Below, piece after piece: positions 11,451 through 60,083 of a stretch of 64,000 nt of DNA (its first letter is position 1; every line of letters starts with the position of its first letter). The stretch comes from a virus. The position numbers were made by a program, and so were the translations under genes. Under the pieces are notes generated by a model. That model had not been told where the DNA came from and did no database searches. It worked only from the letters and a program-made list of their open reading frames with translations. The stretch covers positions 8,428 to 72,427 of IMG/VR virus record IMGVR_UViG_3300036046_000003. One strand, 5' to 3'.

Positions 11451-11475
11451 AAGACGCTCTTTTGCTGGGGAACGT

Positions 11476-12084
11476 ATGAACGACCGGCTATCACTTCTTA
11501 TTGTCGCCCACAACGAAGAGGCGCTTCTAGCCGAAGCTATTCTGGCAGGGCGCGTGTACGCAAATGAAGTTGTAGTAGTAGTGCAACAGTCCAATGACCT
11601 TACCCTCAAAATCGCCTGCGAGCTGGCCGACACCGTGCTGGAACAGCCGAAAATGGGGGGCTGCGAGTTTAGCCGCAAAGCCGGAATTGAAGCCTGCCAG
11701 GGGGCCTGGGTATTGCAGCTAGACGCAGACGAGCGGCTAACCGACTACGGTCAGTCGCAGTTGCGAACCCTCCTGCGCGCCCCCAACACCGCTTATGCCC
11801 TGCGCCGCGTAACGACCGTAGACGGCCAGCTTATCGAGGACGCCTACCATCTGCGGCTACTTCGACCCGACCAATGGGACGGGGACTACTTGACGGTACA
11901 TCGCGCTCTTGGGGTAAACCACACCATTGAGGTAGGCACGGTGGGCGCTTTGCCAGTGATTGACCACCACAAAAGCGGCACGCGCCAGGCCGAGGCCGAC
12001 GAACGTTACCGCCGCTACGGCTATACACGAAGCGAGGCTCGCCCCGAGTGGGCAAATATCGCCTGGACGGTGCGGCATAAATAA
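11476..12084 (+). CDS. Glycosyltransferase, GT2/GT-A family
   Basis: LSLLIVAHNEE, WVLQLDADERL (DxD). Confidence 0.85.
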   Translation: MNDRLSLLIVAHNEEALLAEAILAGRVYANEVVVVVQQSNDLTLKIACELADTVLEQPKMGGCEFSRKAGIEACQGAWVLQLDADERLTDYGQSQLRTLLRAPNTAYALRRVTTVDGQLIEDAYHLRLLRPDQWDGDYLTVHRALGVNHTIEVGTVGALPVIDHHKSGTRQAEADERYRRYGYTRSEARPEWANIAWTVRHK

Positions 12085-12346: not shown

Positions 12347-12724
12347 ATGGCCGAGGTGAACCTTACAATTCAAACAAACGCAACGTTTGACCGGCTCTTC
12401 GTATGGACGAATACGGACGGGTCACGACGTTCGTTGGCGGGCTACAAAGCGCAAATGCAAGTGCGCAAAGCGCCCGGAAAAGCGCTGCTGCTTAACCTTA
12501 CTAGCGCAGGGGGCGCAATTAGGCTAGAGCAGGACGACCACCAAAATAGCGTGGTGGGTGTGTTTCGCGTCGTAATACCCGCTGCGCTGACTGCAAATAT
12601 ACTTTCCACCGGGCCTTTTCCGTACGACCTGCGTATATGGGCTGACAATTCGCTACAAGAGCCTGCGTACCGTTTGCTGGAAGGGCTAGTCACCTTCGAC
12701 GTAGGAGTGTCGATCAATGAGTGA
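12347..12724 (+). CDS. Virion fibre-anchor/baseplate-upper-like protein
   Basis: TF.R.F.W...L.GY.A.MQVR...YDL...LLEG pattern, upstream of collagen fibre. Confidence 0.6.
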
Positions 12725-13610
12725 CCCGGTTATTGTAGTGGCCCCCCCGGCAACCGTTTTAGCTGTGTCCGGGCCAACAGGAGCACAAGGCCCTGCGGGG
12801 CCTGCTGGGGCCGTAGGGCCTGCCGGGGCTGTAGGGCCTGCTGGTGCCGTAGGGCCAACAGGAGCACAAGGCCCACAGGGAGAACCCGGCCCTGCGGGGC
12901 CTGCTGGGGCCGTAGGGCCAACAGGAGCACAAGGCCCACAGGGAGAACCCGGCCCTGCGGGGCCTGCTGGGGCTGTGGGGCCACAGGGAGAACCCGGCCC
13001 TGCGGGGCCTGCTGGGGCTGTGGGGCCACAGGGAGAACCCGGCCCTGCGGGGCCTGCCGGTCAAACAGTAGCTGCGGGTCGGGCGCGGGTGTCAGGAGAA
13101 AACGCGCACTTAGGTTTGCCCGGTATTTTGTTTACTGGCGTAGGGACGGTCACGCTGGCCGCCAACCGGCTTTTGTACGCCCCGCTTGTGTTGCAGCATT
13201 CGCTGACCATAGACCTGCTTAGCGTAGAGGTTACTACAGCCGGGGCTGCGGGGGCGCTCATTCGTCTAGGTTTGTACCAGGCGGATATAGACAACCAACC
13301 AACAGACCTTGTGCTGGACGCGGGGGAAGTGGACGGCGCAAGTGTCGGCGTAAAGACGATCAGCGTAAACATCTCTCTTTCTGTGGGGCGCTATTTATTG
13401 GTGCTTAACACCAACGCAACCCCTACGTTGCGCACTTTTCGTTCTGGTTCGCCCTTTGTGAATAGCGTGCTTGGCGCGACCCCGTTTTTCTCGGCGCTAC
13501 GTAGGTCGGGCACCACCTACGCGGTTTTTCCAGCTACCGGGGTCGGCTGGAACAACACGAGCGCGAGTAGCGTAGGTTTTGAACACTATATTCTTTTGCG
13601 GAGCCAATAA
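12717..13610 (+). CDS. Collagen-like fibre protein
   Basis: Long Gly-X-Y run ([18 protein letters not shown]) at ~12770-13060. Confidence 0.85.
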
Positions 13611-26972: not shown

Positions 26973-27035
26973 TAGCAGTGCGTTTAGTGCAGAAGGCCCA
27001 CTCCGTTCGGGGTGGGCTTTTTCTTTGGAATACTT

Positions 27036-29645
27036 ATGAGTTCTATTTCGCAGCTAGACCTTGTACTTTTAGGCCGACGAGGACTAACGGCTCGCCTGGG
27101 TGGGGTTGAACGCGCCATTCGTGACCTTTCGTTGGGCGTCGCACAAGAGGCAGTAGGCGCGGTTACGGGGGTGCGCCCTAATCTCCTTTCAAACGGCTCC
27201 TTCGAGTTCTACAATCGAGGCGAAACGAAACCAAACGAGTGGGCCGCGAGTGGTACGGTGTCTGTAGCGTCGGGGACGCTGGGCGCTGACGGTAGCGTGG
27301 TAGTGTTGCTTTCAGCGGGGGCCTCTATTAGTCAGTCTGTAGACGGGGGTCAACCGCAGAACGTTGGCGCGGGTACGCTGTCCCTGGCGGTTCGGGCCAC
27401 CGCACCTGCGACAATTACGTTGGCGGTTAACCACAGCGCCGCCACAAGCGGGCCAATCATTCGGTTGGGGCTTGACGGGGTAGAGGTCGAAACAAACGAA
27501 CATCCGGGCGACGGTACTTGGTATCGTTTCTTTCGGCAGTATCTCTTAACCGCCGCTGGTGCGGCTTCTGTGTCGGTGGGCTGCTCTGCCGGTTCTGTTG
27601 AAGCTGATGCCGTTAAATATGAGCGAGAAGACGGTACGGGTACGTTTATCGAACCCACGGCGTTTGTGGGAGGCGATTGGGGGGCTGCCGTCCAGCTACG
27701 CACCCTCAAAGCTGAGAATATTATTTCAGGCCAACTCACGGTTGGCGGGGCGGACAGTAACAACCCACGAATTAGCGTCCTTAACGGGGACAACGCCGAG
27801 ATTGTGACGATAGGAGACCCTGCAAGTGGGTTTCTTGGTATTGAGGTTAAGGACGCGGGGGGTATGCGGGTGAGTGGCAGCGGAGACGTGGCCGTTGTCG
27901 GCGGGGGGCGTATTTACGCGGGTATGCCCGCCGGGGGGCGGACTGAGCTGGCCGCCGCCGGGTTGGCGGGCTACAACGCGGCGAACGAGAAACAGGCGGA
28001 GCTGCAAAGCGCTACTGGTAAACTGCGCATTCTTGGGGTCGGCGGTCTGTCGGTAGAGAATGGGGCGTCCGTCGAAATTAAAGGCGGCGGCCATTTGCTT
28101 GTGGGTACGCCCGACGCGCAGCGTACCGAGGTTCGTAATTACGGGGTTGTTGGATACAACAACGACAACGAAGTTATTTTTGCGCTGAATGAGGCCGGTG
28201 TCGTCAATGGGGTCAACGTAGACGACGGCGATGTATTGATCGGCAACGCAGGCAACAATTACGCGCTTTGGGATAATTCTGCGGGCGAGCTTACTATTGT
28301 CGGAACAGTAATCGCGGGCGAAGGTAACGTCGAAATAGGTACGGCGGGTGTTACCTTGCTGAGTAGCGGCGTTAACTACAACGCACGAAACGCCGTGACC
28401 TGGGTAACTGACCTTTCCGAACCAAATACGGACTTTCCCGTAGCTGTGGTTTTTGGTGGAAGGCAAGAGGTTAGCCAGACAAATCCACGGGTACGCAAAA
28501 TTCTTGACCTGTACAGCGGGTCAATAAACGACGTGTTCTTCTCCCGCCCCGCCGGTAGCCCACAGGAAGACGGAAAGCTTACCTGTATCGCCATTGGCAC
28601 AAAAGACGGCGGACAAGCCAGTGCGTTTTACGGCGCGTTTGCTGGTACTGCCGCAGAAATGATATTCCATTCAGTTGCGCGGCGTATTGAAATTGGCGGA
28701 TCGGGCCTTTGTCGGAAAAACTCGACAAACACAAACCCGGCTTTTTTGCAGTGGGAAGCCGGGTTCGTAGAGTTGGGCGGAGAGGGCCATTCGGCGGGGG
28801 TGCGTACCCGTGGAACCCTCGACGTAAGAAAGCTGAACGCTGCGGGTGGTAGTAACGTTCAACTCGAAGGGCGCACCGCTCTCACCGACATAAACGACGG
28901 CTTTTTGCGGGTCAATCACGGCGAGCAGTACAGTGAAGGTGTTGCGGTGTCGGGCCGCTTACGCGCATTCGGCTGGCTCAGTGTCGGCAATGACGCGCTC
29001 AACTTCACACCCACCGGGTCTACCTGGGCTACAGGTGGGGCTACCTTACTCCTGAACGGCCTGGATACTACCTCGATTGTTTTCCACGACGCCAATAACC
29101 GCGTAGACGCGATTGTGGCGGGCGGGGGACTTCTGCGTATTGGGCCGGACATTGGCTTTGGCCCTGCGAATGTGGAGTTCTCAGGAACTACGGCATTCGG
29201 ACGCGCCCCTGTTTCAAACGTCCGGGCGGTTATGTTTGCGACAACGAATGACAGTAACGGACATAGCCTGTTTTGCGCGAACAACGGCTGGACGCAAAAC
29301 CACTTGTATATTCGCGGAGACGGCTTGCCCTGGGTCAATCAAGCCTGGGTTGTCGGTTCCGACGAACGCCTGAAAGAAGACATAGCCGACGTACCAAACG
29401 CCCTAGACCGTCTTCAAGGCGTTCGGCCCCGCTCCTACTACCTTCGAGCCGACGAGGCCCGTCAACGAAGGCGTCATTACGGCGTAGTCGCTCAGGAGTT
29501 GGTAGAGGTACTACCTGAACTGGTGTCAGAAGGGCAGGACGGCACACTGGCGGTGGCGTATGAAGAGCTGATCCCCCTGCTTGTGGGGGCCGTAAAAGAG
29601 TTGTCAGCGCGGGTTACAGCCCTTGAAGCGCGCCTGCGCTCGTAA
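27036..29645 (+). CDS. Tail fibre/spike with C-terminal intramolecular chaperone (peptidase S74)
   Basis: NLL.NGSFE carbohydrate-binding-like start; SDERLKEDI...YGVVAQEL...V.Y..L...LV.AVKEL. Confidence 0.85.
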   Translation: MSSISQLDLVLLGRRGLTARLGGVERAIRDLSLGVAQEAVGAVTGVRPNLLSNGSFEFYNRGETKPNEWAASGTVSVASGTLGADGSVVVLLSAGASISQSVDGGQPQNVGAGTLSLAVRATAPATITLAVNHSAATSGPIIRLGLDGVEVETNEHPGDGTWYRFFRQYLLTAAGAASVSVGCSAGSVEADAVKYEREDGTGTFIEPTAFVGGDWGAAVQLRTLKAENIISGQLTVGGADSNNPRISVLNGDNAEIVTIGDPASGFLGIEVKDAGGMRVSGSGDVAVVGGGRIYAGMPAGGRTELAAAGLAGYNAANEKQAELQSATGKLRILGVGGLSVENGASVEIKGGGHLLVGTPDAQRTEVRNYGVVGYNNDNEVIFALNEAGVVNGVNVDDGDVLIGNAGNNYALWDNSAGELTIVGTVIAGEGNVEIGTAGVTLLSSGVNYNARNAVTWVTDLSEPNTDFPVAVVFGGRQEVSQTNPRVRKILDLYSGSINDVFFSRPAGSPQEDGKLTCIAIGTKDGGQASAFYGAFAGTAAEMIFHSVARRIEIGGSGLCRKNSTNTNPAFLQWEAGFVELGGEGHSAGVRTRGTLDVRKLNAAGGSNVQLEGRTALTDINDGFLRVNHGEQYSEGVAVSGRLRAFGWLSVGNDALNFTPTGSTWATGGATLLLNGLDTTSIVFHDANNRVDAIVAGGGLLRIGPDIGFGPANVEFSGTTAFGRAPVSNVRAVMFATTNDSNGHSLFCANNGWTQNHLYIRGDGLPWVNQAWVVGSDERLKEDIADVPNALDRLQGVRPRSYYLRADEARQRRRHYGVVAQELVEVLPELVSEGQDGTLAVAYEELIPLLVGAVKELSARVTALEARLRS

Positions 29646-46212: not shown

Positions 46213-46632
46213 CTAGTGAATAGGGACTAGCGCGGCGGGCTGCGCAGCGAACCACAGCCAAAGTAGCGCCAACGCGCAGAGGATTACAAGAAACAGTTTG
46301 AACCCTACTTTAAGCCGTCGCAAAAGCTTGCGAAGTCGCCGCTCTAACGGGTGCTGCGCTTGATTGATCGCGTCGTCCAGGGCGGCTACTGCGAACGCGG
46401 GGTCTACATTGAACCATTCTCCAGCAAGCCGCCATTTGGCAAGGCGTCTGTGTGTAGCTGCTTCGATTTCAAACGGCTTTGCGACAGGACGCCAGCCGCG
46501 TAAGTAGAGCCGCTGGCTATTCCCCGTTTGCAGTTGGCTCCGCCGACCGCCCTTGCTTTCCGGGTGTCGGTTCGCTTTGCCGACCTTTACCGGGCCGTTA
46601 TTACCTTCCTGGTAGACGTAAATACCTGCCAT
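46213..46632 (-). CDS. GIY-YIG (T5orf172/MUG113-like) domain with C-terminal TM
   Basis: IY...VKVG...R.SQLQTGN...E...H..L...GEWF; hydrophobic tail. Confidence 0.8.
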   Translation of the reverse strand: MAGIYVYQEGNNGPVKVGKANRHPESKGGRRSQLQTGNSQRLYLRGWRPVAKPFEIEAATHRRLAKWRLAGEWFNVDPAFAVAALDDAINQAQHPLERRLRKLLRRLKVGFKLFLVILCALALLWLWFAAQPAALVPIH

Positions 46633-47492: not shown

Positions 47493-48029
47493 TTAGGGAG
47501 TTTCGGAAATCTTTTTAACTAATGTACAGACTTTACGGTAGCGGTCGCCCCCGGTGGCCCCAAACACAAGGCGTATAGCCTCTGTTTTACTAGCCCCGCG
47601 ACCTATTAGCGTGCGGACTTCCCTTGCCCCCGCTTCGTCCAAGGGCCGTGACGCCGCCGCTTCACTTACCAGTTTTCTTTCGCGGTCAACCCGCCCCCTT
47701 GCTTTAGCGGTACGAAACGGTGGTTCAGTCGCCGTGCGTGTTCCTAACTCCGCGTCCAGGCGCGCCATTGCGTTCCCCAAATGAAACAACTGCTCTACGC
47801 GGTCTTTAGGCCCGCTAAACCACTCATTGCGAAATCTATAATCCTGCAAAAGTTCGTGAACTTCCCGCTCCACTCGGTACGGATTGGGCTGTTCGTAAGT
47901 GGCAACGACAGACTGCACGAGCGGGCAACCCGTTTGAAGGGTTTTCGTCCTTTGAAGCGCGTCGCTGTCTGTGACCCCAATCTTAAAATAGTCCGTATCG
48001 CCCATTTGAATTAAATAAACAAGCCCCAT
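47493..48029 (-). CDS. GIY-YIG (T5orf172-like) domain + C-terminal HTH-like domain
   Basis: VYLI...FKIG...LQTG.P...E..VH...NEWF; SKTEAIRLVFGATGG.RY. Confidence 0.8.
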   Translation of the reverse strand: MGLVYLIQMGDTDYFKIGVTDSDALQRTKTLQTGCPLVQSVVATYEQPNPYRVEREVHELLQDYRFRNEWFSGPKDRVEQLFHLGNAMARLDAELGTRTATEPPFRTAKARGRVDRERKLVSEAAASRPLDEAGAREVRTLIGRGASKTEAIRLVFGATGGDRYRKVCTLVKKISETP

Positions 48030-48033
48030 TAGC

Positions 48034-49854
48034 TTATTCCTGACTTTTGTGTTGCTGCGCGGTTTCCACAACAATTTTTACCGCCTCAAACTCGTATCGA
48101 AGCCGCTGGTACGCACGTCCGCCGGTAACGCCTGTAGTCTTTTTTAGCGCCGTTGCTACCTCATTTCCGTTTGTTTTGTAGACCTGCAAAGTTTTGACTA
48201 GTACCTTCCGGTTTTCCGCAGATAGCCTTCGAAACACCAAAAGCGCCTCCTTAAAGCTAGTTGGTACAAACTGACCTTCCCCCCTGAAAGGGCCGGAAGG
48301 CGCATTGTTACGCCTTGGAAGGTCATCGGAAGAGGAAGGCGACCCAGCTACCGCCAAGTTACCCACAGGTCTACCTTCCGCCTTGCCTTCCGTGTTATTT
48401 ACCGACCCTTCCAACAGTTCCGCCAGAAGGCATAGGCTATCCTCCGAAACCTCCCTGTTTGGCGCTTCGTTCGCTTGTACCCCCGCGAAGCCTGGATACG
48501 CAGGTGCCGCTATACTTTTCCGTGGAAGTCCCTCTACAATTTCGTCAAATCGGTCTTCGTTTGCTTCGGGGTCGCCGCGAAATATCGGCGTTCGCAGCAG
48601 CGTAAACTCCCCGCGAACTTTTGCCACAAAAACCCCCCGCTCCTGTGGCGGCGGTGGAATTTTGCTCGGTCGAAACGGCAGTGCGGTAGTGTCGCGTACT
48701 CCTAATGCTGGGCCGTCCTGAGAGCCGTCCACTAGCGCCCCAGCAAGCACCGTAGAGAGGTTCATTCGCCAATCCAGACCCTTTCCTGTTGGCGTTTGCA
48801 TAGATACCAACACCCGGATACCCAACGACCTCGCTTTGCTGACCAGGGCCGCCAAAAGCGCTTCCACTTCCCCTGTTATCGCGTCCATTACGTCCGTGAC
48901 CACCACCACAAGCAGCGGCAGCTCAGCGACCCCGCCTTGCGCCGCCCGTTTGTTGTACTGTTCTCGCGTTCGGCAGCCCGCCGAAACAAGCAACTCCTGG
49001 CGGCGCTCGGCCTCGGCGTCAATGACCTTGCAAGCCATTAGAATAGCTTCGCGGCCCTTTTTACCGTAGCCCCCCGCAGGCGGAAAGAACATATGAGACA
49101 GCCCCGACAGGGCGGGCACTAACCAATCTGATTTACCGTCCAGGAACGCAAACTGTAGCGTTTCCGGCCCGTTTCGGCTCGCCAAAAGCGCGAACCAACA
49201 GCGCAAGAGTGCGTCTTTTCCCGCCCCGCTCGTACCGTAAATACCTATATGAAGCAAATCCAGGGCAAGATCGCCCCACACCTGCTTTCCGAGATAATCT
49301 GTGCCCAACGGCACTGCGGTTGTGCTGGCAGGAAACGGCTGAAACTCACCCAAAAGCACGCGCTTTGGAAGTGCGTTTAGTGCAGAAGCCATTGACGCCG
49401 AGGGGCTTTGCAAGCCAGCAGGACGGCTTGCCGCGCCTTTTAGACCGTCGTCATCTTCCCGGCCACGCCCCTTCGACCTCTCCGGGGGCACAGCCGAGGT
49501 TTGAGCCGTTGCTACGGCTTGCGAAGTCGTAGCGCTGGGCGGCGTTTTTGCCGCTAGTTCTTTTCGAGCGGGGGCGGACAAGCGCGCCGGTGTAGTCTCT
49601 ACCAGCCGCACCAATCCCGGCCAGGAACCTTGCGCGTACGTATTCCGGGCCACCTGACGTGGGTCAATGGCTAAGGCTTTGCAAACGGCGGCGGCGACGG
49701 AGGGCGAACGGCGAAGAAAGTATTGACCGAGCGGCAGCAGGAAAAGAGGAGCTGCCCCAGCGGCTCCCCCTGCCACACCGATAGCCGCAAGCAAAATATC
49801 GGTCGCGTCGAATGGAGGTGGGTTTTTTGGCTTGTTCTCTATCGAAGTTTCCAT
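48034..49854 (-). CDS. FtsK/SpoIIIE/TraB-family ATPase with N-terminal TM
   Basis: HIGIYGTSGAGK, FAFLDGK, E.ERR, LPLLVVVVTD, KARSLGI.V..SMQ.P. Confidence 0.85.
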   Translation of the reverse strand: METSIENKPKNPPPFDATDILLAAIGVAGGAAGAAPLFLLPLGQYFLRRSPSVAAAVCKALAIDPRQVARNTYAQGSWPGLVRLVETTPARLSAPARKELAAKTPPSATTSQAVATAQTSAVPPERSKGRGREDDDGLKGAASRPAGLQSPSASMASALNALPKRVLLGEFQPFPASTTAVPLGTDYLGKQVWGDLALDLLHIGIYGTSGAGKDALLRCWFALLASRNGPETLQFAFLDGKSDWLVPALSGLSHMFFPPAGGYGKKGREAILMACKVIDAEAERRQELLVSAGCRTREQYNKRAAQGGVAELPLLVVVVTDVMDAITGEVEALLAALVSKARSLGIRVLVSMQTPTGKGLDWRMNLSTVLAGALVDGSQDGPALGVRDTTALPFRPSKIPPPPQERGVFVAKVRGEFTLLRTPIFRGDPEANEDRFDEIVEGLPRKSIAAPAYPGFAGVQANEAPNREVSEDSLCLLAELLEGSVNNTEGKAEGRPVGNLAVAGSPSSSDDLPRRNNAPSGPFRGEGQFVPTSFKEALLVFRRLSAENRKVLVKTLQVYKTNGNEVATALKKTTGVTGGRAYQRLRYEFEAVKIVVETAQQHKSQE

Positions 49855-49880
49855 TTGCGCGTTTCCTTATGCGGCTGCTT

Positions 49881-50460
49881 GCAAGTCACTCTAGTGGCTT
49901 GCGCGCCTCGTCTTGGTGGGTGCATTGTATCCTTTCGCGCCGCAGCTGTCTACTATATCTCCGCAACCCGTCGCGTTTTAAGCCACTCTAGTGGCTTGCA
50001 AGCCGTTTTACCCCGGTAGTGCGCTCAAATCGGGGTTTAAGCCACTCTAGTGGCTTGCAAGGTCGCTTGCAGCCGTCGATTTTCACCGCCACCAGGCCCC
50101 AAAACGGGCTTTTCGTGCGTTTCCCTGGTGGTAGGCCCACAAAGAACGCCTCTCGGGGGCTGTCCCAAGAGGCGTTTTAAGCCACTCTAGTGGCTTGCAA
50201 GCCGTTTTACCCCGGTAGTGCGCTCAAATCGGGGTTTAAGCCACTCTAGTGGCTTGCAAGGTCGCTTGCAGCCGTCGATTTTCACCGCCACCAGGCCCCA
50301 AAACGGGCTTTTCGTGCGTTTCCCTGGTGGTAGGCCCACAAAGAACGCCTCTCGGGGGCTGTCCCAAGAGGCGTTTTAAGCCACTCTAGTGGCTTGCAAG
50401 CCGTTTTACCCCGGTAGTGCGCTCAAATCGGGGTTTAAGCCACTCTAGTGGCTTGCAAGG
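49881..50460. repeat. Array of seven 18-bp palindromes AAGCCACT-CT-AGTGGCTT within a 199-bp tandem repeat
   Basis: Copies at 49883 (variant), 49980, 50039, 50179, 50238, 50378, 50437. Confidence 0.95.
49924..49952 (-). promoter_or_regulatory. Sigma70-type promoter for the FtsK operon
   Basis: TAGACA-N17-TACAAT on - strand. Confidence 0.65.
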
Positions 50461-50464
50461 ACTC

Positions 50465-51160
50465 TTAGGCCCGCCCGGCGGTGCGTGCGTCGCCTCGCCC
50501 GGTTTCTGGCGCGCCTTTCATTGCGTTCAGAATAAGCACAATACCGGCGGCAAGAAACAAAATAAAGGCCATTTCCATAACCAGGGACGCGATTAACGTC
50601 ATTACGAGCTTGGCGGCAATACCAAGACCGCCAGCAAACGGCCCCGCCCACAAGAGCGCGCCCCGGTCAATGTACGTCTGGACGAAGAGCGCCGAACGCT
50701 CTAAGTCGGTGATAAAATCAAACACGATAAAGGCGTACACGAGCCATTCAATAAAGGTAATCCCCGCCCGCGCCAACCGCGCCCCGAACAATTCCAACAG
50801 CGTTGGAAACAACGAAACGAGGGTGCCCACCATAACGGCCCACTGTGGCGAAACCAAACCGTAGCTGCTTTCCACCGCCCGGCGGGCTTCGGCCAGCCAA
50901 TCGTAGGTACTCTCCAAGTCAAAGTAGTAGGCAAGGCCACCACAGATACTAGCGATAGCGAGAAACGCGATACCGCTAATCATCGCCGAACGCCCTGTAG
51001 TACCGCGTACCGCCTTGAACGCTCGTTCAAGATTTTCGCTCAGGTCAAGCCAGCCGAGAAAGTCCCCGTTTCTGCCAAAAGCCGCATAGAGCAAACCCGC
51101 AATCGCCAAAAAAACAAGCCAATCGAAGGGGCCGTAACCGTTAAAAGGATTGTACAGCAC
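50465..51160 (-). CDS. Multi-TM membrane protein
   Basis: ~5 hydrophobic helices; GAGGAG RBS. Confidence 0.7.
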   Translation of the reverse strand: MLYNPFNGYGPFDWLVFLAIAGLLYAAFGRNGDFLGWLDLSENLERAFKAVRGTTGRSAMISGIAFLAIASICGGLAYYFDLESTYDWLAEARRAVESSYGLVSPQWAVMVGTLVSLFPTLLELFGARLARAGITFIEWLVYAFIVFDFITDLERSALFVQTYIDRGALLWAGPFAGGLGIAAKLVMTLIASLVMEMAFILFLAAGIVLILNAMKGAPETGRGDARTAGRA

Positions 51161-51245
51161 TGAGTTCTCCTCTGGTTTTGCGAAGTATTACTCCGCAGGT
51201 ACGATAAGTAAAGAGCGCCCCTTTCGGAGCGCCGGAAGGTTTAGC

Positions 51246-51761
51246 TTACTTTTGTAGGTCTGCCTTCGCCAACTGAACGATAGCGAGCATAAGCGCCACC
51301 ACCTTGCGGCGCTCGCCAATCGGAATATCGTCCAGTTCTCGGGCTACTGGACTAAAATCCCCGGCGCTAGGTAGCTTGTAATTGCGTATGTCAACCTCAT
51401 CAAACCACCCATCAGCTAAGCCAAACTCTAGTGGATTACAGCCAATAACCTCCGCAATCCTGCGGAACGTTTGCGGTTTTGCTTTAGAGCGGCCACTAAG
51501 AATGGCCGACAAAAAGCCCCGCGAAAGCGGTTCCTCCACCACGGTCGCGGCTTCCCCCTCTACCCGGGTATCAACAGGCCGCTTTGCCCTGGCGGCCACG
51601 TCCGATACGTTCAACCCCAGCGTTCTGTCGGCGTATAAGAGCCAATAGCCCAGGCAGAGGGTTAAGTCCTCTAGCCGATGTTCGTGAAGGTACGCGAACA
51701 GCGCGTCGGTATTGCGCCCATAGGTCGCCTCTGCGGCGCGATATTTACTTTCTACTGCCAC
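51246..51761 (-). CDS. XRE-like HTH regulator
   Basis: LSRGFLSAILSG...P...T..RIA..IG; GGAGGAGG RBS. Confidence 0.7.
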   Translation of the reverse strand: MAVESKYRAAEATYGRNTDALFAYLHEHRLEDLTLCLGYWLLYADRTLGLNVSDVAARAKRPVDTRVEGEAATVVEEPLSRGFLSAILSGRSKAKPQTFRRIAEVIGCNPLEFGLADGWFDEVDIRNYKLPSAGDFSPVARELDDIPIGERRKVVALMLAIVQLAKADLQK

Positions 51762-51774
51762 CTCCTCCTACTTT

Positions 51775-52659
51775 CTACACCGGAACAGAAACCGCAGCGG
51801 GTCGCGTCGCCGGTTTCTCGCCGCGCCGCCGCAAATACAAACCCTCTAACCGCGCCGTTGCCTGCGCCGTATAGCGCTGCGTCGTCTCACAACGCTTATG
51901 CCCTGCTATACGCCGTACCGCGTCAATATCCCCCCCGTTGGGGTCGTCCAGCAACTCGGTAAGCAGTTGGTGGCGGAACAAATGAGGGTGAACGTCCGGG
52001 CGACCTACAACCGCGCCCAGCTCTGTAACAAGCTGCCGTACCCGTTGGTCGCTCAACTCAAACAAGCGCCCCGTTTTCGGAAAGCCGCGCAGCGCAAGAT
52101 AATGCCGAAGCGCCCCGGCTGTCTGGTGATCGAAATAGACTAGTCGCTCGTCTCCGCCTTTCCCCATTACCGTCGCCTTGCCCGCTTCGTCCGCGTGGCG
52201 GGGAAACTGCACGTTTTCGATACACAAACCCACGACTTCGCTTACGCGCCCGCCTGTGGCCCGCAACACCAGCAAAAGTGCCAGGTTACGCGCCCCCGCT
52301 ACCGTAGTGGTGTCGCAAGCACAGCACATTCCCTCAAACTCTTCCGGCGAAAGCAACTGCGGAAGTACCAGCGGTACTTTAACCCCGCGAACGGCAAGCG
52401 CCGCCAATACGTCGCCGCTTAGTAGCTCCTCCGCCACCGCCCAGGTCAAAAACGCACGTGCTGCCGACAGTCGCCGGTTCACCGTCGCCGGTGCGTAACC
52501 CTGCTGTAGTGCTTGCCGGTACGCGGCTAGTTGCTTTGGTCGCAACTCCTCTACGCTGTATCCGTTATCGGATAACCACTGAGAGAAGGCGCGGAGGTCA
52601 GCGGCGTAGGCGCGGCGGGTCTGCGGGGACTGTAGGGTATCGAGAAACCGGGGGAGCAT
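51775..52659 (-). CDS. Tyrosine recombinase (XerC/D-like)
   Basis: T.RAY..DL, TG.RVSE, GKG..ER, HPHLFRH, GH....T.RY. Confidence 0.93.
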   Translation of the reverse strand: MLPRFLDTLQSPQTRRAYAADLRAFSQWLSDNGYSVEELRPKQLAAYRQALQQGYAPATVNRRLSAARAFLTWAVAEELLSGDVLAALAVRGVKVPLVLPQLLSPEEFEGMCCACDTTTVAGARNLALLLVLRATGGRVSEVVGLCIENVQFPRHADEAGKATVMGKGGDERLVYFDHQTAGALRHYLALRGFPKTGRLFELSDQRVRQLVTELGAVVGRPDVHPHLFRHQLLTELLDDPNGGDIDAVRRIAGHKRCETTQRYTAQATARLEGLYLRRRGEKPATRPAAVSVPV

Positions 52660-53059
52660 AAAAGGAGCCTTTGCACTAACTGCACAAGTAGTATACGCGG
52701 TCTGTCAACTCTGCGCAACTGCGGCGTACTTTAGTCGGCGGGCGGCGGCGCGATCCCGTTCCTGGGCGCGGCGTTCTTTTGAGCGGGACGCCTCTACCGG
52801 CGGGTCTTCGTCCACGTACTCTTCTGCGGGGTTGTTTCGTTCACGCAGGCGGGGTTGCCGTTCTTTGCGAAGCACCAGTGTCTCCTTTCCTACCGCCGCG
52901 TACGGGGCGGCTAGCTCGAAAAGTATACAGTTGCTTCGCAGCGGCGTCTATCGAACGGGTCGGAATTGAACCTATTGCTAGTCGTTATCTCCGTAGACCG
53001 CCGAGGGGCTATTCCCTCTTGTGGGCAACCTAATGCGGGTTGCGTATACGGAGGGACGA

Positions 53060-54595
53060 ATGCCAGACGAGACAGTCAACGGGAACCTTACGGTGACGGG
53101 GACGGTGTACGCCGATAACTTTAGAACAGCGGCGTCTGGTTTGCTTTCTATCGAAAAAGATAACGCTAAACTAAACCTGTCACGCAGCTCTAATGTTACA
53201 ACGGCAAGCCTTAGTGTGGCTACTTCGGGCAGTATCGCGCTTGTCGCGGATAATGGAGAGACTATTGCTTCGTATCGTGCTTTGGCACACCGCTTCTATT
53301 TGGGCGGCTCTGCGCAACCCTTTTTCATCGCGGATAACAACCGACTAGAGTATGTCACCTCCTATTACGACAAGTATAGCGTTACCGGCGATAATGAAGC
53401 CGGTCAGATTGAAGTAAACGCCGTAACAAGCGGAGGGGCAGAGGCGGTACTCCAATCATACGCTGCGCGCCACGATTTTTTTGTTTTAGGCAACCACCGG
53501 GCTGCCTTTACCTCCGGATTAGAGCTTTATGGCGGGCAGGGAGCGGCCAGTGTCTCGGCGCGTAGTAATTCGGGTGGGGCCGCAATCCCGCTGGTGCTAA
53601 ACGGCAGTGACGTTGCTGTTACTGCCCCTTTTAGTGCCCCGTCCGTGTTGGTTTTCGGCCAGGTCAGCGCTGGTAATCTAAGTACGGTTGGTTCGATTGC
53701 TGCGCCGGGTGTGCTTATCCAGAACCAAAATATCCAGGCAAACGGTTGGCTGGCCTCTCAGTCTTTGTCGGCAGACCAGCGGATTGAACTGCGATCTATT
53801 GACGGCGGTGGCGTTCGCGTTCGCGCCAGTAACTTTGCAAACAACGCGCTCCGTCCGCTAGACCTGGAAGCTAGTGTAGTGAGAACGCCAGGGTGGGTCT
53901 CTGTCGGAAGTGGCACACAGAACTATACGCCAACTGGCTCCACCTGGGCTACCGGCGGCGCTACCTTGCTGCTGAATGGCCTGGATACGACTTCGATTGC
54001 TTTTCACGACGCCAATAACCGCGTGGACGCAATTGTAGCGGGCGGCGGTCTGATGCGCGTTGGGCCGGATACCGGCTTTGGCCCTGCGAACGTTCAAACC
54101 TACGGCTTTACCGGCGCGGGCGGCGTTCCTCTTGCGAACCAGCGTATGCGCGTCTATTCTAGCGGCGATAACAGCGGTCACTTCCCTCTCGCCGTTGTGA
54201 ATAGCGCAGGCAGCGCGGCGCTGATGTACGTTCGCGGCGATGGTTACGCCTGGACGAGCCAGCCGTGGGCTGTTGGCTCCGACGAACGCCTGAAAGACAA
54301 GGTTGAGCCGCTTGACGCTACCGCGCTAGAGAAGTTGGCCCAGGTTACGTTCCACCGCTACCAGCTTCGCGCAAACGGCCTCCCGCAAGTCGGGGTCATA
54401 GCGCAGGAGCTACAGCAGGTGTTCCCTGAACTGGTGAGCGAACACCACGACCCGGCCAACCCGAACGAGGCACCGCTGCTGGCGGTCAACTATCAGGGTC
54501 TCGCGGTCTACCAGGGAGCCGCAATCCAGCAACTCGCCGCAAAGGTTGCGGGCTTGGAAGAGCGTCTGGCCGCACTCGAAAAGCGCTTTGCCTAG
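53060..54595 (+). CDS. Second tail fibre/receptor-binding protein with S74 chaperone
   Basis: SDERLKD..., GVIAQELQ.VFPELV; ~60-aa block near-identical to 27036..29645. Confidence 0.85.
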   Translation: MPDETVNGNLTVTGTVYADNFRTAASGLLSIEKDNAKLNLSRSSNVTTASLSVATSGSIALVADNGETIASYRALAHRFYLGGSAQPFFIADNNRLEYVTSYYDKYSVTGDNEAGQIEVNAVTSGGAEAVLQSYAARHDFFVLGNHRAAFTSGLELYGGQGAASVSARSNSGGAAIPLVLNGSDVAVTAPFSAPSVLVFGQVSAGNLSTVGSIAAPGVLIQNQNIQANGWLASQSLSADQRIELRSIDGGGVRVRASNFANNALRPLDLEASVVRTPGWVSVGSGTQNYTPTGSTWATGGATLLLNGLDTTSIAFHDANNRVDAIVAGGGLMRVGPDTGFGPANVQTYGFTGAGGVPLANQRMRVYSSGDNSGHFPLAVVNSAGSAALMYVRGDGYAWTSQPWAVGSDERLKDKVEPLDATALEKLAQVTFHRYQLRANGLPQVGVIAQELQQVFPELVSEHHDPANPNEAPLLAVNYQGLAVYQGAAIQQLAAKVAGLEERLAALEKRFA

Positions 54596-54600
54596 ACCGT

Positions 54601-54660
54601 AAAAAAGAAGCCCCCTTTACAGAGAACGAAACGTTCTGTAAAGGGGGCTTCTTTTTTTTT
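54601..54660. terminator. Bidirectional terminator
   Basis: AAAAAAGAAGCCCCCTTTACAGA...TCTGTAAAGGGGGCTTCTTTTTT. Confidence 0.85.
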
Positions 54661-54708: not shown

Positions 54709-54978
54709 CTAAAGGGTCACTCCTATGGCCTGACACAACGATCCCGCCGTCCGCCTAAGAGCTTTTAGGCTTTCGCCGTTACAGGGGCGCACTTCCGCCG
54801 AGTAGAAGTTGACAAGATAACCCGCCATTAGAAATAGCGTTCGACTGTCGTCCGTCTCGATACGCACGCCGTCAGCGCCGGGGTGGCTCGAATAGCAGCC
54901 CCCAAAGCCCAGGGAAAGTATCGCGTTGACCGTGTGTACGTCAAATCCAGGGTAATACCGAACGAAGAAGCTGTACAT
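54709..54978 (-). CDS. Hypothetical early protein
   Basis: TAATG coupling. Confidence 0.5.
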   Translation of the reverse strand: MYSFFVRYYPGFDVHTVNAILSLGFGGCYSSHPGADGVRIETDDSRTLFLMAGYLVNFYSAEVRPCNGESLKALRRTAGSLCQAIGVTL

Positions 54979-55346
54979 TAATAGGTCTCCTTAACTTCTA
55001 CAAAATTCACACCCTCACTGTAGTAGCCGTTACTTTCGCCATACCAACGAAGCGTAACGTACCCCTTAATAGTGGCGAACTTATAGAACGTCCAAGTATA
55101 GCTACCCCAGTCATTTGTTCCGCCCTCGGAGACTTCCTCCGCCTGCAAAATCGGAGCGTCGGTAAGATCGTCCAAATTACCGATAACGTCCTCTAGGGTA
55201 ACACTTTCGCAGCAGTCCTGGTCGTGAAACATTTTCCAGCGGCGTCCGTCCTTGCAGATAAACACCAACTCGTCGCCGTCCGTACTGCGGTGAATGGCCT
55301 CTAGCGTTACGCCCACCAATACACTAACGTCCTGATACTGCTGCAC
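54978..55346 (-). CDS. Conserved phage protein
   Basis: H.QDCCE.V...D..G, TWTFY...T.KG....RW.G.SNGYYSE signature. Confidence 0.75.
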   Translation of the reverse strand: MQQYQDVSVLVGVTLEAIHRSTDGDELVFICKDGRRWKMFHDQDCCESVTLEDVIGNLDDLTDAPILQAEEVSEGGTNDWGSYTWTFYKFATIKGYVTLRWYGESNGYYSEGVNFVEVKETY

Positions 55347-55673: not shown

Positions 55674-56201
55674 TTACTCCCCGGCACAACGGCGAATGTC
55701 CTCTAGCGCCTCCTCTGTACTTGCAAACCAGTTGGGGATACGCTCTAGGTTCGGGTCGCTGGCCTGATAAATCAGGGCCGCTGCCGCGTTTGTTCCCAGC
55801 CGCGCCTCTAACGCCGCCCCGGCTTGCCCGGCGAGTGTTACTACCCAACCGGCCCGACAGTGGGTTGTCCCGCAGTGCCAGCTACCCATATCCAGCCCGC
55901 CTGTAGAGACCGCTTCAAGCAGTGCCCGGTGAATATTTGGCACTACGGGAATAACCGCAGGTAGAATGGCCCCGCTCAGGTTGGCCTCACACAGGTCGGC
56001 CCCGTTCAGGTCGGCGTTGCGCAGGTCGGCCCGGCGCAGGTCGGCCCCGCTCAGATTAGCCCCGCTCAGGTCGGCCCAGTACAGGTCGGCCCCGCTCAGG
56101 TCGGCCCCGCCAAGGTCGGCGTTGCTCAGGTTGGCGCGCGCCCCGTTCGGGTGGTCGTTCAGCCAAAGCTGATGGTTAGCGATCACTTCTTCGATATTCA
56201 C
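55674..56201 (-). CDS. Pentapeptide repeat protein
   Basis: A(D/N)LxG repeats; C-terminal CGTTHCRAGW. Confidence 0.9.
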   Translation of the reverse strand: MNIEEVIANHQLWLNDHPNGARANLSNADLGGADLSGADLYWADLSGANLSGADLRRADLRNADLNGADLCEANLSGAILPAVIPVVPNIHRALLEAVSTGGLDMGSWHCGTTHCRAGWVVTLAGQAGAALEARLGTNAAAALIYQASDPNLERIPNWFASTEEALEDIRRCAGE

Positions 56202-57575: not shown

Positions 57576-58328
57576 TTACTCGCCCGCACAACGGCGAATA
57601 TCCTCTAGCGTCTCTTCGTTACTCGCGAACCAGTTAGGAATACGCTTTAGAGACGGGTCGCTGGCCTGATAAATCAGGGCTGCTGCCGCGTTCGTTCCTA
57701 ACCGCTCCTCTAATGCCGCCCCCGCTTCTCCTGCCAGCATTACAATCCAGCCCGCCCTACAATGGGTTGTCCCGCAGTGCCTTCTACTCATAGCTAGCCC
57801 GCCCGTAGAGACCGCTTCGTAGAGCGCCTGGTGAATGTCGGGCACTACGGGGATACCGTCAGGGAGAAAGGCCCCGCTCAGGTCGGCCCCGCTCAGGTTG
57901 GCCCCGCTCAGGTTGGCGTAGCGCAGGTTGGCGGCGCTCAGGTCGGCGTCGCTCAGGTTGGCCCCGCTCAGGTTGGCCCTGCTCAGGTTGGCGTTGCGCA
58001 GGTTGGCCTCGCTCAGGTAGGCGTAGCGCAGGTCGGCCCCGCTCAGGTAGGCGTCGCTCAGGTTAGCCCCGCTCAGGTTGGCCCCGCTCAGGTTGGCGGC
58101 GCTCAGGTTGGCCTCGCTCAGGTAGGCCCCGCTCAGGTCGGCGTCGCGCAGGTTGGCGGCGCTCAGGTTGGCCTCGCTCAGGTAGGCCCCGCTCAGGTCG
58201 GCCCCGCTCAGGTTGGCCCCGCTCAGGTTGGCGTAGCGCAGGTTGGCGTAGCTCCGGTCGGCGCGAATGCCGTTAGGGTCGCCGTTCAACCAGAGCTGAT
58301 GGTTAGCGAGCACTTCGGTGATATTCAC
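57576..58328 (-). CDS. Pentapeptide repeat protein (longer paralog)
   Basis: More A(N/D/Y)LSG repeats, same N- and C-terminal domains as 55674..56201; GTG start at 58328. Confidence 0.9.
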   Translation of the reverse strand: MNITEVLANHQLWLNGDPNGIRADRSYANLRYANLSGANLSGADLSGAYLSEANLSAANLRDADLSGAYLSEANLSAANLSGANLSGANLSDAYLSGADLRYAYLSEANLRNANLSRANLSGANLSDADLSAANLRYANLSGANLSGADLSGAFLPDGIPVVPDIHQALYEAVSTGGLAMSRRHCGTTHCRAGWIVMLAGEAGAALEERLGTNAAAALIYQASDPSLKRIPNWFASNEETLEDIRRCAGE

Positions 58329-58356
58329 GACTAGGTACCTTTCTGTAGGTTGCTTC

Positions 58357-58725
58357 TTACGTAGACCGGGGGCGAACGTCGTCCGCTGAAACCCAACCCT
58401 CTTCTTCGGGCGCTTCGGGCCAATGAACCAGATACGGGAGGTCTCTATCGCAATCATCTACCTCTACAACCTCCCCGGCGATCCAACTGCCCTTGACGTA
58501 TACCTCTACGGCGTCTCCCTCTTCGTAAAGCAGCGCGTCCGGGTAATCCCCGTCCGCGTTCGCGTCCGGGTCAGGAACAAATTCGTTCCTGACGGCCCAC
58601 TCTACCGCGTCCGAAAAAGACAGTTCGTAAACGAGTGAGCTAATCAAGTTCTGCGCAGTTGCGTTCAGGCCCGCGTGGTTGTCGAACAGCGATCCTAGCA
58701 AGTCTTCTCGATTGACGTAGACCAT
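58357..58725 (-). CDS. Hypothetical protein with Tudor/SH3-like C-terminus
   Basis: GD.VEV...G.W..GEV......YLVHW......WV....VRP. Confidence 0.6.
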   Translation of the reverse strand: MVYVNREDLLGSLFDNHAGLNATAQNLISSLVYELSFSDAVEWAVRNEFVPDPDANADGDYPDALLYEEGDAVEVYVKGSWIAGEVVEVDDCDRDLPYLVHWPEAPEEEGWVSADDVRPRST

Positions 58726-59759: not shown

Positions 59760-60083
59760 TTAGTCGTTGTTGGTCTTCGCATAGGCCAGAACCTCTGCCG
59801 CCGTCCAAACCAGAACCGATACCAGCAAGCCAGCCGAGTCAGTACACCTATTTTGCGCCGCCAGGAACGCGGGAACACTGTCATACCCCGCAGAACCTAC
59901 CGCGTATTCGTAGACGAGATCGTAAATCTCTTCGTCAAACTTATTCCAGAGGGCTTTCAAGTCCGAAGAATAGGTAAGGCCCGCGTATCCGGTATCGGCT
60001 CCGTGGTTGGTTATGTCTGCAAGCTCACTGCGAGTGAAATTGGCTGAAAGCCAGCGGTCAAACGACGTTGCGCGGATAATCAT
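59760..60083 (-). CDS. Small acidic phage protein
   Basis: DI..HG.D.G..GL.Y..D pattern. Confidence 0.6.
   Translation of the reverse strand: MIIRATSFDRWLSANFTRSELADITNHGADTGYAGLTYSSDLKALWNKFDEEIYDLVYEYAVGSAGYDSVPAFLAAQNRCTDSAGLLVSVLVWTAAEVLAYAKTNND

Follow-up and report, generated by a model that had tools for sequence, protein, structure and literature searches.

The window, a stretch of 64,000 nucleotides (positions 8,428 to 72,427 of IMG/VR record IMGVR_UViG_3300036046_000003), contains a tandem array of palindromic repeats between two minus-strand genes of a phage, one for a protein with several hydrophobic segments and one for an FtsK-like ATPase. The features in and around the array are as follows, in order of position.

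48034..49854, minus strand: FtsK/SpoIIIE-family ATPase gene, 606 aa, with a hydrophobic N-terminus
49023..49056, minus strand: diverged repeat copy in a conserved ATPase block of the FtsK-like coding sequence, encoding AILMACKV; inverted relative to the array
49403..49436, minus strand: diverged repeat copy in the linker of the FtsK-like coding sequence, encoding AASRPAGLQS; inverted relative to the array
49496..49529, plus strand: diverged repeat copy in the hypervariable linker of the FtsK-like coding sequence, encoding SQAVATA
49876..49909, plus strand: variant copy in the predicted FtsK leader (core 49883-49900, 1 mismatch)
49924..49952, minus strand: promoter-like site TAGACA-17-TACAAT, a consensus match only (10 of 12 positions)
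49973..50460: tandem array of a 199-bp unit, from Tandem Repeats Finder and a repeat search
49977..50002, plus strand: repeat RA1, TTT + AAGCCACTCTAGTGGCTT + GCAAG; identical RA copies at 50176-50201 and 50375-50400
50003..50035: short spacer S, 33 nt, with hairpin ACCCCG/CGGGGT; again at 50202-50234 and 50401-50433
50036..50061, plus strand: repeat RB1, 26 nt identical to RA1; identical RB copies at 50235-50260 and 50434-50459
50062..50175: long spacer L, 114 nt; again at 50261-50374
50089-50096 and 50124-50131: hairpin in long spacer L, CCACCAGG/CCTGGTGG
50145-50153 and 50168-50176: second hairpin of long spacer L, AACGCCTCT/AGAGGCGTT
50465..51160, minus strand: protein of 231 aa containing several hydrophobic segments; in distant phages it is conserved as the partner upstream of the FtsK-like gene
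51246..51761, minus strand: 171-aa helix-turn-helix (HTH) protein with a weak lambda-cI/Cro-like fold, a candidate binder of the repeats
51775..52659, minus strand: Xer-like tyrosine recombinase, 294 aa, 1.3 kb from the repeats

As assembled, the array at 49973-50460 consists of 2.45 copies of the 199-bp unit at 100% identity, a copy number that cannot be verified from sequence alone because the 288-bp exact repeat exceeds a k-mer of 127, the usual top value of short-read assemblers. Tandem Repeats Finder describes the same interval with a period of 199 bp, 2.5 copies, 100% matches and a score of 976. The layout is RA-S-RB-L-RA-S-RB-L-RA-S-RB, each unit carrying two copies of a 26-nt repeat at spacings of 59 and 140 bp. 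The repeat is an 18-bp palindrome, AAGCCACTCTAGTGGCTT, preceded by TTT and followed by GCAAG; the two repeats of one unit are direct rather than inverted and have 26 nt in common, with different flanks. Seven copies of the palindrome core were located by the repeat search, with start-to-start spacings of 97/59/140/59/140/59. The 59/140/59/140/59 intervals given in the preliminary description were borne out by this search, and the three spacer hairpins that it reported are present in the sequence as described. Five nucleotides separate the last RB copy from the stop codon (50465-50467) of the minus-strand gene upstream. Small open reading frames of 50-53 aa within the units look spurious, 199 not being a multiple of 3.

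The array belongs to a family of ten copies, six in the array itself and four diverged ones close by; of these four, one lies in the FtsK leader and the other three, which were missing from the preliminary description, fall within the FtsK-like gene. All ten lie within 49023-50463, a zone of 1.45 kb. A search of both strands with the 18-mer, allowing up to three mismatches, returned 15 matches against 0.04 expected from shuffles, all of them inside 49032-50454. A covariance model built from the ten copies recovered no additional copy in the 64-kb window, its next best match having E 0.14, and the 72-kb phage genome holds no further relative of the 23-mer above shuffle level. The motif CTTGCAAG occurs nine times genome-wide, eight times within the repeat zone. 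The general form of the element is AAGCC-N8-GGCTT followed by GCAAG, and it is asymmetric, GGCTTGC being invariant on the 3' side only. The central CT is kept in five of the six distinct copies; the three intragenic copies depart from the array in their central 6-8 bp, and the leader copy retains the centre of the array. That leader copy has CTTGCAAG at its left and GCGCG at its right, and its orientation is ambiguous because it shows 3 mismatches in 23 positions on either strand. The copy at 49023-49056 matches RB at 23 of 26 positions by hand count. Minus copies lie to the left of about 49450 and plus copies to the right, a pattern drawn from about five independent sites. Because their central regions differ, the array and the inverted intragenic copies are rejected as partners in an inversion switch.

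The element could not be traced to a known family. In an exact-match scan of one genome each of 185,579 species (GTDB), in which cores with mismatches are missed, the 18-nt core gave two single chance matches, and no genome held it more than once. Nine single exact matches in JGI metagenomes have unrelated flanks. The exact 23-mer has no match in IMG/VR; the looser pattern CTTGCAAGCC-N8-GGCTT occurs there at no fewer than 113 loci (at least that number), and among the matches listed there is no cluster, all being single sites except for one self-overlapping palindrome. When the region and the unit were compared with INPHARED and PLSDB by BLAST, no match had an E value under 0.1. Some architectural likeness to known repeats can nevertheless be described. 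REP/BIME elements also have a small palindromic unit, two alternating linkers and a position in an intergenic gap right after a stop codon. REP families are dispersed, with tens to hundreds of copies per genome, whereas the present copies occupy one 1.45-kb phage zone, are direct repeats in the array, and have a core that is not a family in any sequenced genome scanned; the confinement of all ten copies to 49023-50463 speaks against membership of this class. The sopC-type centromere of plasmid F is built of tandem units, each with one palindromic binding site, and likewise shows identical head-to-tail units around a short inverted repeat. Unlike sopC, the array has two sites and extra hairpins per unit, and no ParA/ParB-type genes were found among the 78 open reading frames by Pfam.

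The diverged copies indicate that the motif has been maintained. Inner stem positions co-vary, with 95.8% of cells paired: four cells have changed on both sides and are still paired, two are unpaired, and all four single changes that still pair are G·U on the aligned strand. The observed covariation score was reached by 5 of 500 shuffles and rests on only four diverged sequences. In the copy at 49496-49529, two double changes preserve the stem. This copy lies in an otherwise unalignable linker, where the encoded QAVATA is found in 3 of 120 homologues, namely this phage and P0002 and P0005, two of the closest FtsK homologues. The copy at 49023-49056 overlies the conserved block AILxAIKA, which reads AILMACKV in this phage, an Ile-to-Cys change; the AC[KN] pattern occurs in 1 of 120 FtsK homologues, and the copy uses the rare codons GCT (14%) and CTA (12%). 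Because a unique Ile-to-Cys substitution and rare codons are found in a conserved protein block, the repeat motif is, judged by these comparisons, under selection. The array might still lack a function of its own, having arisen by slippage or unequal exchange at a hairpin, or its copy number might be an assembly artefact. Units that are 100% identical imply a recent origin, and the 127-bp direct repeat that ends the virus record suggests short-read graph assembly, in which a 288-bp exact repeat is uncountable. Such an explanation covers the copy number, however, and not the family, in which four diverged copies have been kept with compensatory changes, one of them despite the unique substitution that it imposes on a conserved block. 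Its probability is judged to be low.

Comparison with relatives identifies the array region as an insertion. Sixteen distant loci were fetched, one of which is cut by a contig end, and in 15 of the 15 evaluable loci the membrane-protein homologue stops at or past the point where the FtsK frame opens. Since the gene pair abuts in all of these relatives, the 610-bp gap with the array is a lineage-specific insertion. No repeat array was found in the 10 of the 16 loci that were scanned upstream. The loci came from an IMG/VR search with an alignment of FtsK proteins, which recovered only distant loci at 53-58% identity over the ATPase domain; a search of IMG/VR with the FtsK protein alone gave no relative and one with the HTH alignment gave none, and tblastn against cultured phages reached an identity of at most about 30%. 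The closest FtsK and HTH homologues are P0002-P0012, P0123 and P0124.

The sequence next to the FtsK-like gene suggests how the insertion might act. The reading frame opens at ATG 49854, preceded by AAGGAAA. A sigma-70-type scan of 49400-51900 found 2 sites against 0.7 expected, a count to be read with the possibility that the host promoter type differs, and found none on the plus strand. RA1 is situated about 24 bp upstream of the predicted -35. The variant copy falls in the interval from the predicted -10 to the ribosome-binding site, its centre about 25 nt past the predicted start site. A variant copy between the FtsK promoter and its start codon had been proposed previously, and the coordinates agree, the core at 49883-49900 falling between the predicted promoter (49952-49924) and ATG 49854. 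Folding of the predicted leader is not unusual (z -1.3). The 171-aa HTH protein has a weak HTH_3 match; its structural model (pLDDT 71.8) is closest to the lambda cI N-terminal domain, C.AhdI and 434 Cro (probability 0.97-0.99, E 0.17-0.4), and the fold search gave no match at E <= 0.001. Linkage to the pump gene is suggested by the two sole HTH homologues (P0123 and P0124): their longest contigs have the same lengths (20642 and 36408) as those listed for FtsK homologues P0005 and P0011, with which they therefore probably share contigs.

The explanation preferred here, held tentatively and at somewhat less than even confidence, is that the repeats control the FtsK-like gene in cis, as a cluster of sites to which a phage protein binds, perhaps the cI-like HTH protein encoded nearby. 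Within a family of ten oriented elements that form hairpins and are specific to this phage, the array would be the part that has been amplified. The 610-bp insertion would split a normally overlapping pair, a polytopic membrane protein gene followed by the FtsK-like ATPase gene, and would give the latter a promoter of its own. A sequence-specific phage protein, for which the cI-like HTH protein encoded 0.8 kb upstream is the best candidate, would bind at six strong sites immediately before the -35, at one in the leader and at three weaker ones within the first 830 bp of the FtsK-like gene. Through cooperative binding, looping or a roadblock, a membrane DNA pump that is potentially toxic could thereby be silenced or held to a strict timing. 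The analysis itself shows the repeats, their restriction to this zone, the insertion and the selection on the motif; we infer the promoter, the binding protein and the repressed outcome. The geometry fits an operator set, since sites with an 18-bp dyad lie at or near the predicted promoter, RA1 before the -35 and the variant copy in the interval from the -10 to the ribosome-binding site. Among the options offered by the preliminary description (an operator, centromere or clt array, a processed RNA array, or a CRISPR mimic), the operator-like position holds at the level of prediction, and the searches made for a CRISPR mimic came back negative.

A comparable arrangement may be the kil-kor pair traR-traB found on Streptomyces plasmids. 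According to the available portion of the source (PMC4447253), traB is probably toxic when unregulated and is restrained by traR, a dedicated DNA-binding repressor. As far as that portion describes the pair, it also involves a gene for a membrane FtsK-like translocase; in the phage, dyad sites lie upstream of, within and downstream of the predicted promoter. Unlike the plasmids, the phage has a weak cI/Cro-like HTH candidate instead of a GntR-type TraR, of which no homologue was found in the phage. Both kil-kor and operator sets with auxiliary intragenic operators differ further from the present locus, which shows hairpin complementarity at inner positions and six sites on 199-bp units with extra hairpins. 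Several observations count against the control cluster. A dimeric protein that binds double-stranded DNA needs no inner-stem covariation, and this covariation points, as far as the aligned copies tell, to a hairpin in RNA or single-stranded DNA. With its centre some 25 nt beyond the predicted start, the variant copy is more distant than is usual for a classical operator. The asymmetry of GGCTTGC, invariant on the 3' side only, the promoter known from consensus alone and the weak HTH fold match also argue against it.

The stem covariation bears most directly on the possibility that the hairpins act in RNA, where they might serve the FtsK-like mRNA in processing, stability, antitermination or same-strand antisense pairing. 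In a variant of this idea, a plus-strand transcript would be the decoy that captures a hairpin-binding factor. In the four diverged copies the stem is preserved by changes that are compensatory or G·U only, and the 199-nt unit folds stably on both strands (z -3.92 and -3.74, with 0 of 200 shuffles equally stable). On the minus (sense) strand the array starts 5 nt past the membrane-protein stop codon, and the FtsK-like mRNA carries inverted, hence complementary, copies in its coding region, of which the one at 49023-49056 is complementary to minus-strand RB over 26 nt with three non-Watson-Crick positions. However, because both orientations are present, no single transcript would hold all copies in the same sense, and the covariation is based on four diverged sequences, while folding does not distinguish the strands of the unit. 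No plus-strand promoter was found by the scan described above, and an Rfam search (E <= 10) gave no CRISPR-DR or other family (best E 0.56). The repeats have none of the long T runs seen in the clear terminator of the phage at 54601-54657; the hairpins of long spacer L are without a full T run on either strand, and a terminator scan made no call. An RNA function is given a modest probability, below that of the control cluster.

Some RNA-based systems have repeats of similar form. The geometry of a CRISPR repeat-spacer-repeat unit, noted in the preliminary description, is real: the repeat measures about 28 nt and has a 5-7-bp stem, the spacer is about 31 nt long (31-33 nt), and the period is 59 bp. 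The repeats could accordingly be imagined as a CRISPR-repeat mimic, either a Racr solitary repeat or a repeat-spacer-repeat Cracr or mini-array RNA, hijacking host Cas proteins. Viral RNAs of this kind are documented in the accessible parts of two reports (PMC10651486; bioRxiv 10.1101/2024.10.29.618823), and the present phage resembles them in having a repeat-spacer-repeat unit of CRISPR-like lengths. In this phage, unlike those, no likeness to CRISPR repeats and no spacer target were found, the units are exact tandem copies rather than repeats with different spacers, and copies lie inside a protein-coding gene. Nothing in its favour came from Rfam, from the 185,579 genomes and JGI metagenomes (exact-match scans, with no array containing the hairpin core), or from searches for a spacer match, a plus-strand promoter and cas genes, of which none was found among the 78 open reading frames (Pfam). 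The spacer, suggested earlier for BLAST, had no match in INPHARED or PLSDB (E <= 10), in IMG/VR (exact 20-mer) or in the phage's own genome. The two repeats have no more than 26 nt in common, and the proposal leaves unexplained why selected copies occur within the FtsK coding sequence. A CRISPR mimic is very improbable, and CRISPR-length repeat-spacer-repeat architecture in a phage need not signify one. Other classes were ruled out by gene content or position. A retron is excluded as no reverse transcriptase was found. Type III toxin-antitoxin systems have tandem repeats of about 35-45 nt directly upstream of a small endoribonuclease toxin gene; here the unit is 199 nt and the downstream gene encodes an FtsK-family ATPase, not such a toxin. 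A replication origin or packaging site is excluded by position, since 10-14 kb separate the array from the helicase and primase genes and 45 kb from the terminase gene.

The perfect identity of the units, bounded exactly by the repeats, could also reflect recombination. The copies might be crossover or binding sites of a recombinase, either 11+6+11 (dif/lox-like) sites for the Xer-like enzyme or 12+2+12 sites for a large serine recombinase around the non-palindromic CT, and exchange between direct copies would make and homogenise the tandem units. The Xer-like gene is nearby, and its product matches XerC/XerD models at E 1e-44 to 1e-45, below their cut-offs, and the XerD structure 1a0p at E 1.2e-20; a large serine recombinase gene is also present in the phage. 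The size of 26-28 bp, the better conservation of one arm and the central CT in five of six distinct copies fit formally, although such a fit holds for any palindrome. The three intragenic copies differ in the central 6-8 bp, so they would not recombine with the array, and a dimer-resolution or att site normally occurs once. More than 20 kb lie between the repeats and the serine recombinase gene, and no recombinase adjoins the gene pair in the two distant loci whose neighbours were scanned. Recombinase sites are considered unlikely.

The confinement of the cluster to the FtsK-like gene and its upstream region raises another explanation, in which the repeats are a clt-, KOPS- or centromere-like loading site of the FtsK-like pump and would mark phage DNA that the pump and its polytopic membrane partner translocate or segregate. 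The available parts of two reports describe TraB binding to clt adjoining its gene (PMC4447253; PMC3429521), clt consisting of direct 8-bp repeats bound by the TraB C-terminus (PMC4447253). As far as those parts go, clt resembles the present locus as a cis repeat locus next to the gene for a membrane FtsK-like ATPase with a membrane-protein partner, and the pairing found here recalls TraB with Spd membrane proteins. The elements are moreover oriented, with a switch near 49450, although this pattern comes from few independent sites. In contrast to clt, the elements here are 18-bp palindromes in 26-nt units, and the C-terminus of the pump has no recognisable DNA-binding fold: its last 108 aa fold as helices, the fold search gave no DNA-binding match (best E 1.0) and Pfam gave nothing. 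The distant loci also argue against a loading site, as no array was found in the 10 scanned and the 15 evaluable loci have no gap for one. A loading site is given only a small likelihood. A bolder form of it, for which the chance is slimmer still, is that the cluster is the recognition locus of a phage module for double-stranded DNA transfer of the TraB/Spd type, comprising the pump and its polytopic partner. If so, the oriented elements would load and direct the pump, and the phage genome could be pumped, with no need of virions, from one cell to its neighbour or into a chosen compartment.

The control cluster remains the preferred reading among these. The locus holds a private, selected set of hairpins around one phage FtsK-like gene, and the defined 26-nt site offers an experimental handle on the control of the pump or on its recognition of DNA. 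Annotations of FtsK-like genes in phages are common, though the accessible parts of the literature searched give no function or cis-acting site for them. Some homologues of the FtsK-like pump carry names from filamentous Chloroflexota.

The repeats form a real family of oriented hairpin elements, under selection and private to this phage, with an FtsK-like gene at its centre. Some of its members are amplified as a tandem array within a lineage-specific insertion, and the whole is best filed as a new form of the known cis-regulatory repeat clusters. On the minus strand, the elements and their neighbours lie in the following order:

51775-52659, minus: Xer-like tyrosine recombinase
51246-51761, minus: 171-aa HTH protein, followed by a terminator-like site
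50465-51160, minus: 231-aa protein with several hydrophobic segments
49973-50460: repeat array, beginning 5 nt past the stop codon of the 231-aa gene
49952-49924, minus: promoter-like site
49883-49900: core of the leader copy, a diverged repeat
48034-49854, minus: 606-aa FtsK-family ATPase, hydrophobic at its N-terminus, with AAGGAAA ahead of its ATG (49854)

Tandem Repeats Finder reports the array as a 199-bp unit in 2.5 copies with 100% matches. Each unit comprises two copies (RA and RB) of a 26-nt repeat in the order RA, short spacer (33 nt), RB, long spacer (114 nt), and repeat starts fall at the 59/140-bp intervals given in the preliminary description. The spacer hairpins named there are also present, and its variant copy does lie between the predicted FtsK promoter and the start codon. 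The 26 nt common to RA and RB consist of TTT, the 18-bp palindrome AAGCCACTCTAGTGGCTT and GCAAG; the 18-mer family matches 15 times over the two strands, where 0.04 would be expected. Compared with its shuffles, the 199-nt unit is much more stably folded (z of -3.9 and -3.7 on the two strands), as is expected for palindromic DNA, and folding does not distinguish the strands.

The record is a tailed phage of 72,427 bp (the window being bases 8428-72427), with the following main features:

Plus strand: terminase (T4-type), portal, protease and capsid module with siphovirus-type tail genes
Minus strand: long run of early genes, including DnaB-like helicase, primase, methyltransferase and MazG
Straddling the window start: DNA polymerase A and large serine recombinase
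Window 4-1248, extending upstream to genome 8002, plus: the large serine recombinase (Resolvase, Recombinase and zinc ribbon domains)

A Pfam scan of 78 ORFs gives no cas gene, reverse transcriptase or ParA/ParB. At its two ends (genome 1-127 and 72301-72427) the record has a 127-bp direct repeat, a length common as the top k-mer of assemblers; it looks like a sign of short-read graph assembly and probably marks a circular assembly, not physical terminal repeats. The array copy number is uncertain: a 288-bp exact repeat cannot be counted by such an assembly. Slippage or an assembly artefact accounts for the unit number but leaves the diverged, selected copies unexplained, and is very improbable as a full explanation.

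Homologues of the FtsK-like protein are numerous, and the nearest show 45-50% identity over the full length. DNA-level comparison covered sixteen more distant IMG/VR loci. In each of the 15 that no contig end cuts short, the gene directly upstream of the FtsK gene encodes a homologue of the 231-aa protein (30-33% identity, E 1e-18 to 1e-21), and its stop codon is at or past the opening of the FtsK reading frame. The two loci read in detail have the ORFs overlapping by 4 bp. Since distant relatives normally have the two genes coupled, the 610-bp gap, with its array and predicted promoter, has been inserted into a conserved pair. Ten of the 16 distant loci were scanned for a repeat array upstream of the FtsK gene, and none has one. 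In two scanned distant loci the pair is flanked by DNA polymerase A and a PD-(D/E)XK nuclease, with no recombinase or HTH gene beside it.

Beyond the copies in the preliminary description, three diverged copies lie within the FtsK-like coding sequence:

49496-49529, plus: diverged copy in the N-terminal linker
49403-49436, minus: diverged copy
49023-49056, minus: diverged copy in the ATPase block

The covariance model of the six distinct copies recovers the ten known sites, which match it by construction, at E 1e-10 to 4e-7, and no other match in the window falls below E 0.14. Eight of the nine occurrences of CTTGCAAG in the genome are in the repeat zone. Together with the three intragenic copies, these results make the family private to a 1.45-kb zone that takes in the gap ahead of the FtsK-like gene and the 5' half of the gene itself.

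In the six-copy alignment, 95.8% of stem cells are paired and two are unpaired; four cells, at three pairs, are altered on both sides with pairing kept. Shuffling matches the observed covariation in only 5 of 500 trials, and pairing is lost when partners are slid. Drawn from four diverged sequences, this covariation is suggestive of selection on the motif, short of proof. The 49023-49056 copy overlies a conserved block, AILxAIKA in homologues and AILMACKV in this phage; its Cys is unique (AC[KN] in 1/120 homologues), and rare Ala and Leu codons are used (GCT 14%, CTA 12%). There the FtsK-like coding sequence is bent so as to spell GGCTTGCAAG. The 49496-49529 copy encodes SQAVATA in an otherwise unalignable, hypervariable N-terminal linker. 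QAVATA (here 49503-49526) occurs in three of 120 homologues: this phage's own, P0002 (residue 130) and P0005 (residue 150), the latter two among the closest. This is a hint that relatives carry the site too; the shared peptide may also have a protein-level cause.

All four single changes that keep pairing give G·U on the aligned strand, and this pattern, with the covariation, favours an RNA or single-stranded DNA hairpin over a plain double-stranded operator. On the sense strand the array starts just past a stop codon, and its sequence complements that of the inverted copies carried by the FtsK-like mRNA, which makes a role in processing, stability, antitermination or same-strand antisense control plausible. 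Against action as RNA-level hairpins, which we consider unlikely but worth weighing, copies occur in both orientations, no known family is matched and the phage's clear terminator at 54601-54657 has long T runs that are absent from the array hairpins. The elements have orientation, since only their 3' side has the invariant GGCTTGC, and five of the six distinct copies keep the central CT. The array, the 49496 copy and probably the leader copy share one orientation; the 49403 and 49023 copies have the opposite one.

The phage carries two site-specific recombinases, the large serine type and the Xer-like tyrosine type, and the repeats can be read as 11+6+11 (Xer-like enzyme) or 12+2+12 around CT (serine recombinase). 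Any palindrome suits these schemes, however, and the three intragenic copies have centres unlike those of the array, which leaves recombinase sites quite improbable.

Our tentative preference, at somewhat below an even chance, is that the cluster controls the FtsK-like gene in cis. The repeats, their confinement to one zone, the insertion and selection on the motif are established; the promoter, the binding protein and the outcome are inferred. The insertion would separate this gene from its partner and bring its own promoter, with six strong sites just upstream of it, one in the leader and three weaker ones in the gene's first 830 bp. A sequence-specific phage protein on these sites may repress through cooperative binding, looping or roadblock. 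The 171-aa HTH protein is the nearest candidate binder. It matches HTH_3 weakly, and the structures closest to its model (pLDDT 71.8) are lambda cI NTD, C.AhdI and 434 Cro, with no fold match at E <= 0.001. The longest contigs of its sole two homologues agree in length with those listed for the FtsK homologues P0005 and P0011, which suggests shared contigs. The traR-traB kil-kor pair of Streptomyces plasmids, described in PMC4447253, in which the membrane FtsK-like translocase is probably toxic when unregulated, offers a precedent for such control. The gene pair also resembles TraB/Spd, as a clt-like loading site for the pump would have it, but the clt repeats described in that source are direct 8-mers and the C-terminal domain of the pump gave no DNA-binding fold (Pfam, fold search); we give a loading site little chance.

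Viral CRISPR-mimic RNAs are known (described in PMC10651486; bioRxiv 10.1101/2024.10.29.618823), and a repeat-spacer-repeat mimic was among the options first proposed for the array. Repeat and spacer lengths fit, but the defining likeness to a real CRISPR repeat is missing from the collections scanned. Rfam gives no match, and exact-match scans for the 18-nt hairpin core give just two single matches across 185,579 species, each represented by one genome, and nine single matches with unrelated flanks in JGI metagenomes, the same data type as the record. The suggested spacer search also came back empty in INPHARED and PLSDB, as it did in IMG/VR and the phage's own genome. No promoter is seen on the plus strand of the repeat region, and the mimic reading leaves the intragenic copies unexplained. 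On present evidence the array is not a CRISPR mimic; as the collection scans were exact-match, a very slight probability is retained.

Just downstream of the FtsK-like gene are two paralogous T5orf172/MUG113-domain genes, 47493-48074 (minus) and 46213-46632 (minus), the former overlapping the FtsK-like ORF 3' end by 41 nt as called. Two pentapeptide-repeat proteins are encoded in the early region, 55674-56201 (minus) and 57576-58457 (minus), near a DUF7448 gene (54978-55346) and a DUF7222 gene (59760-60083). Between capsid and tail genes, the structural module holds two glycosyltransferase genes and a collagen-repeat gene (10203-12084, plus; 12717-13610, plus). A second tail-fibre-like gene, whose product has an S74 intramolecular chaperone domain (53021-54595, plus; the other S74-domain gene is 27012-29645), stands isolated amid minus-strand early genes, distant from the tail module. 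Directly 3' of it, the perfect 23-bp inverted repeat at 54601-54657, with an 11-nt loop and A6/T6 flanks, resembles a textbook bidirectional terminator placed where genes converge.
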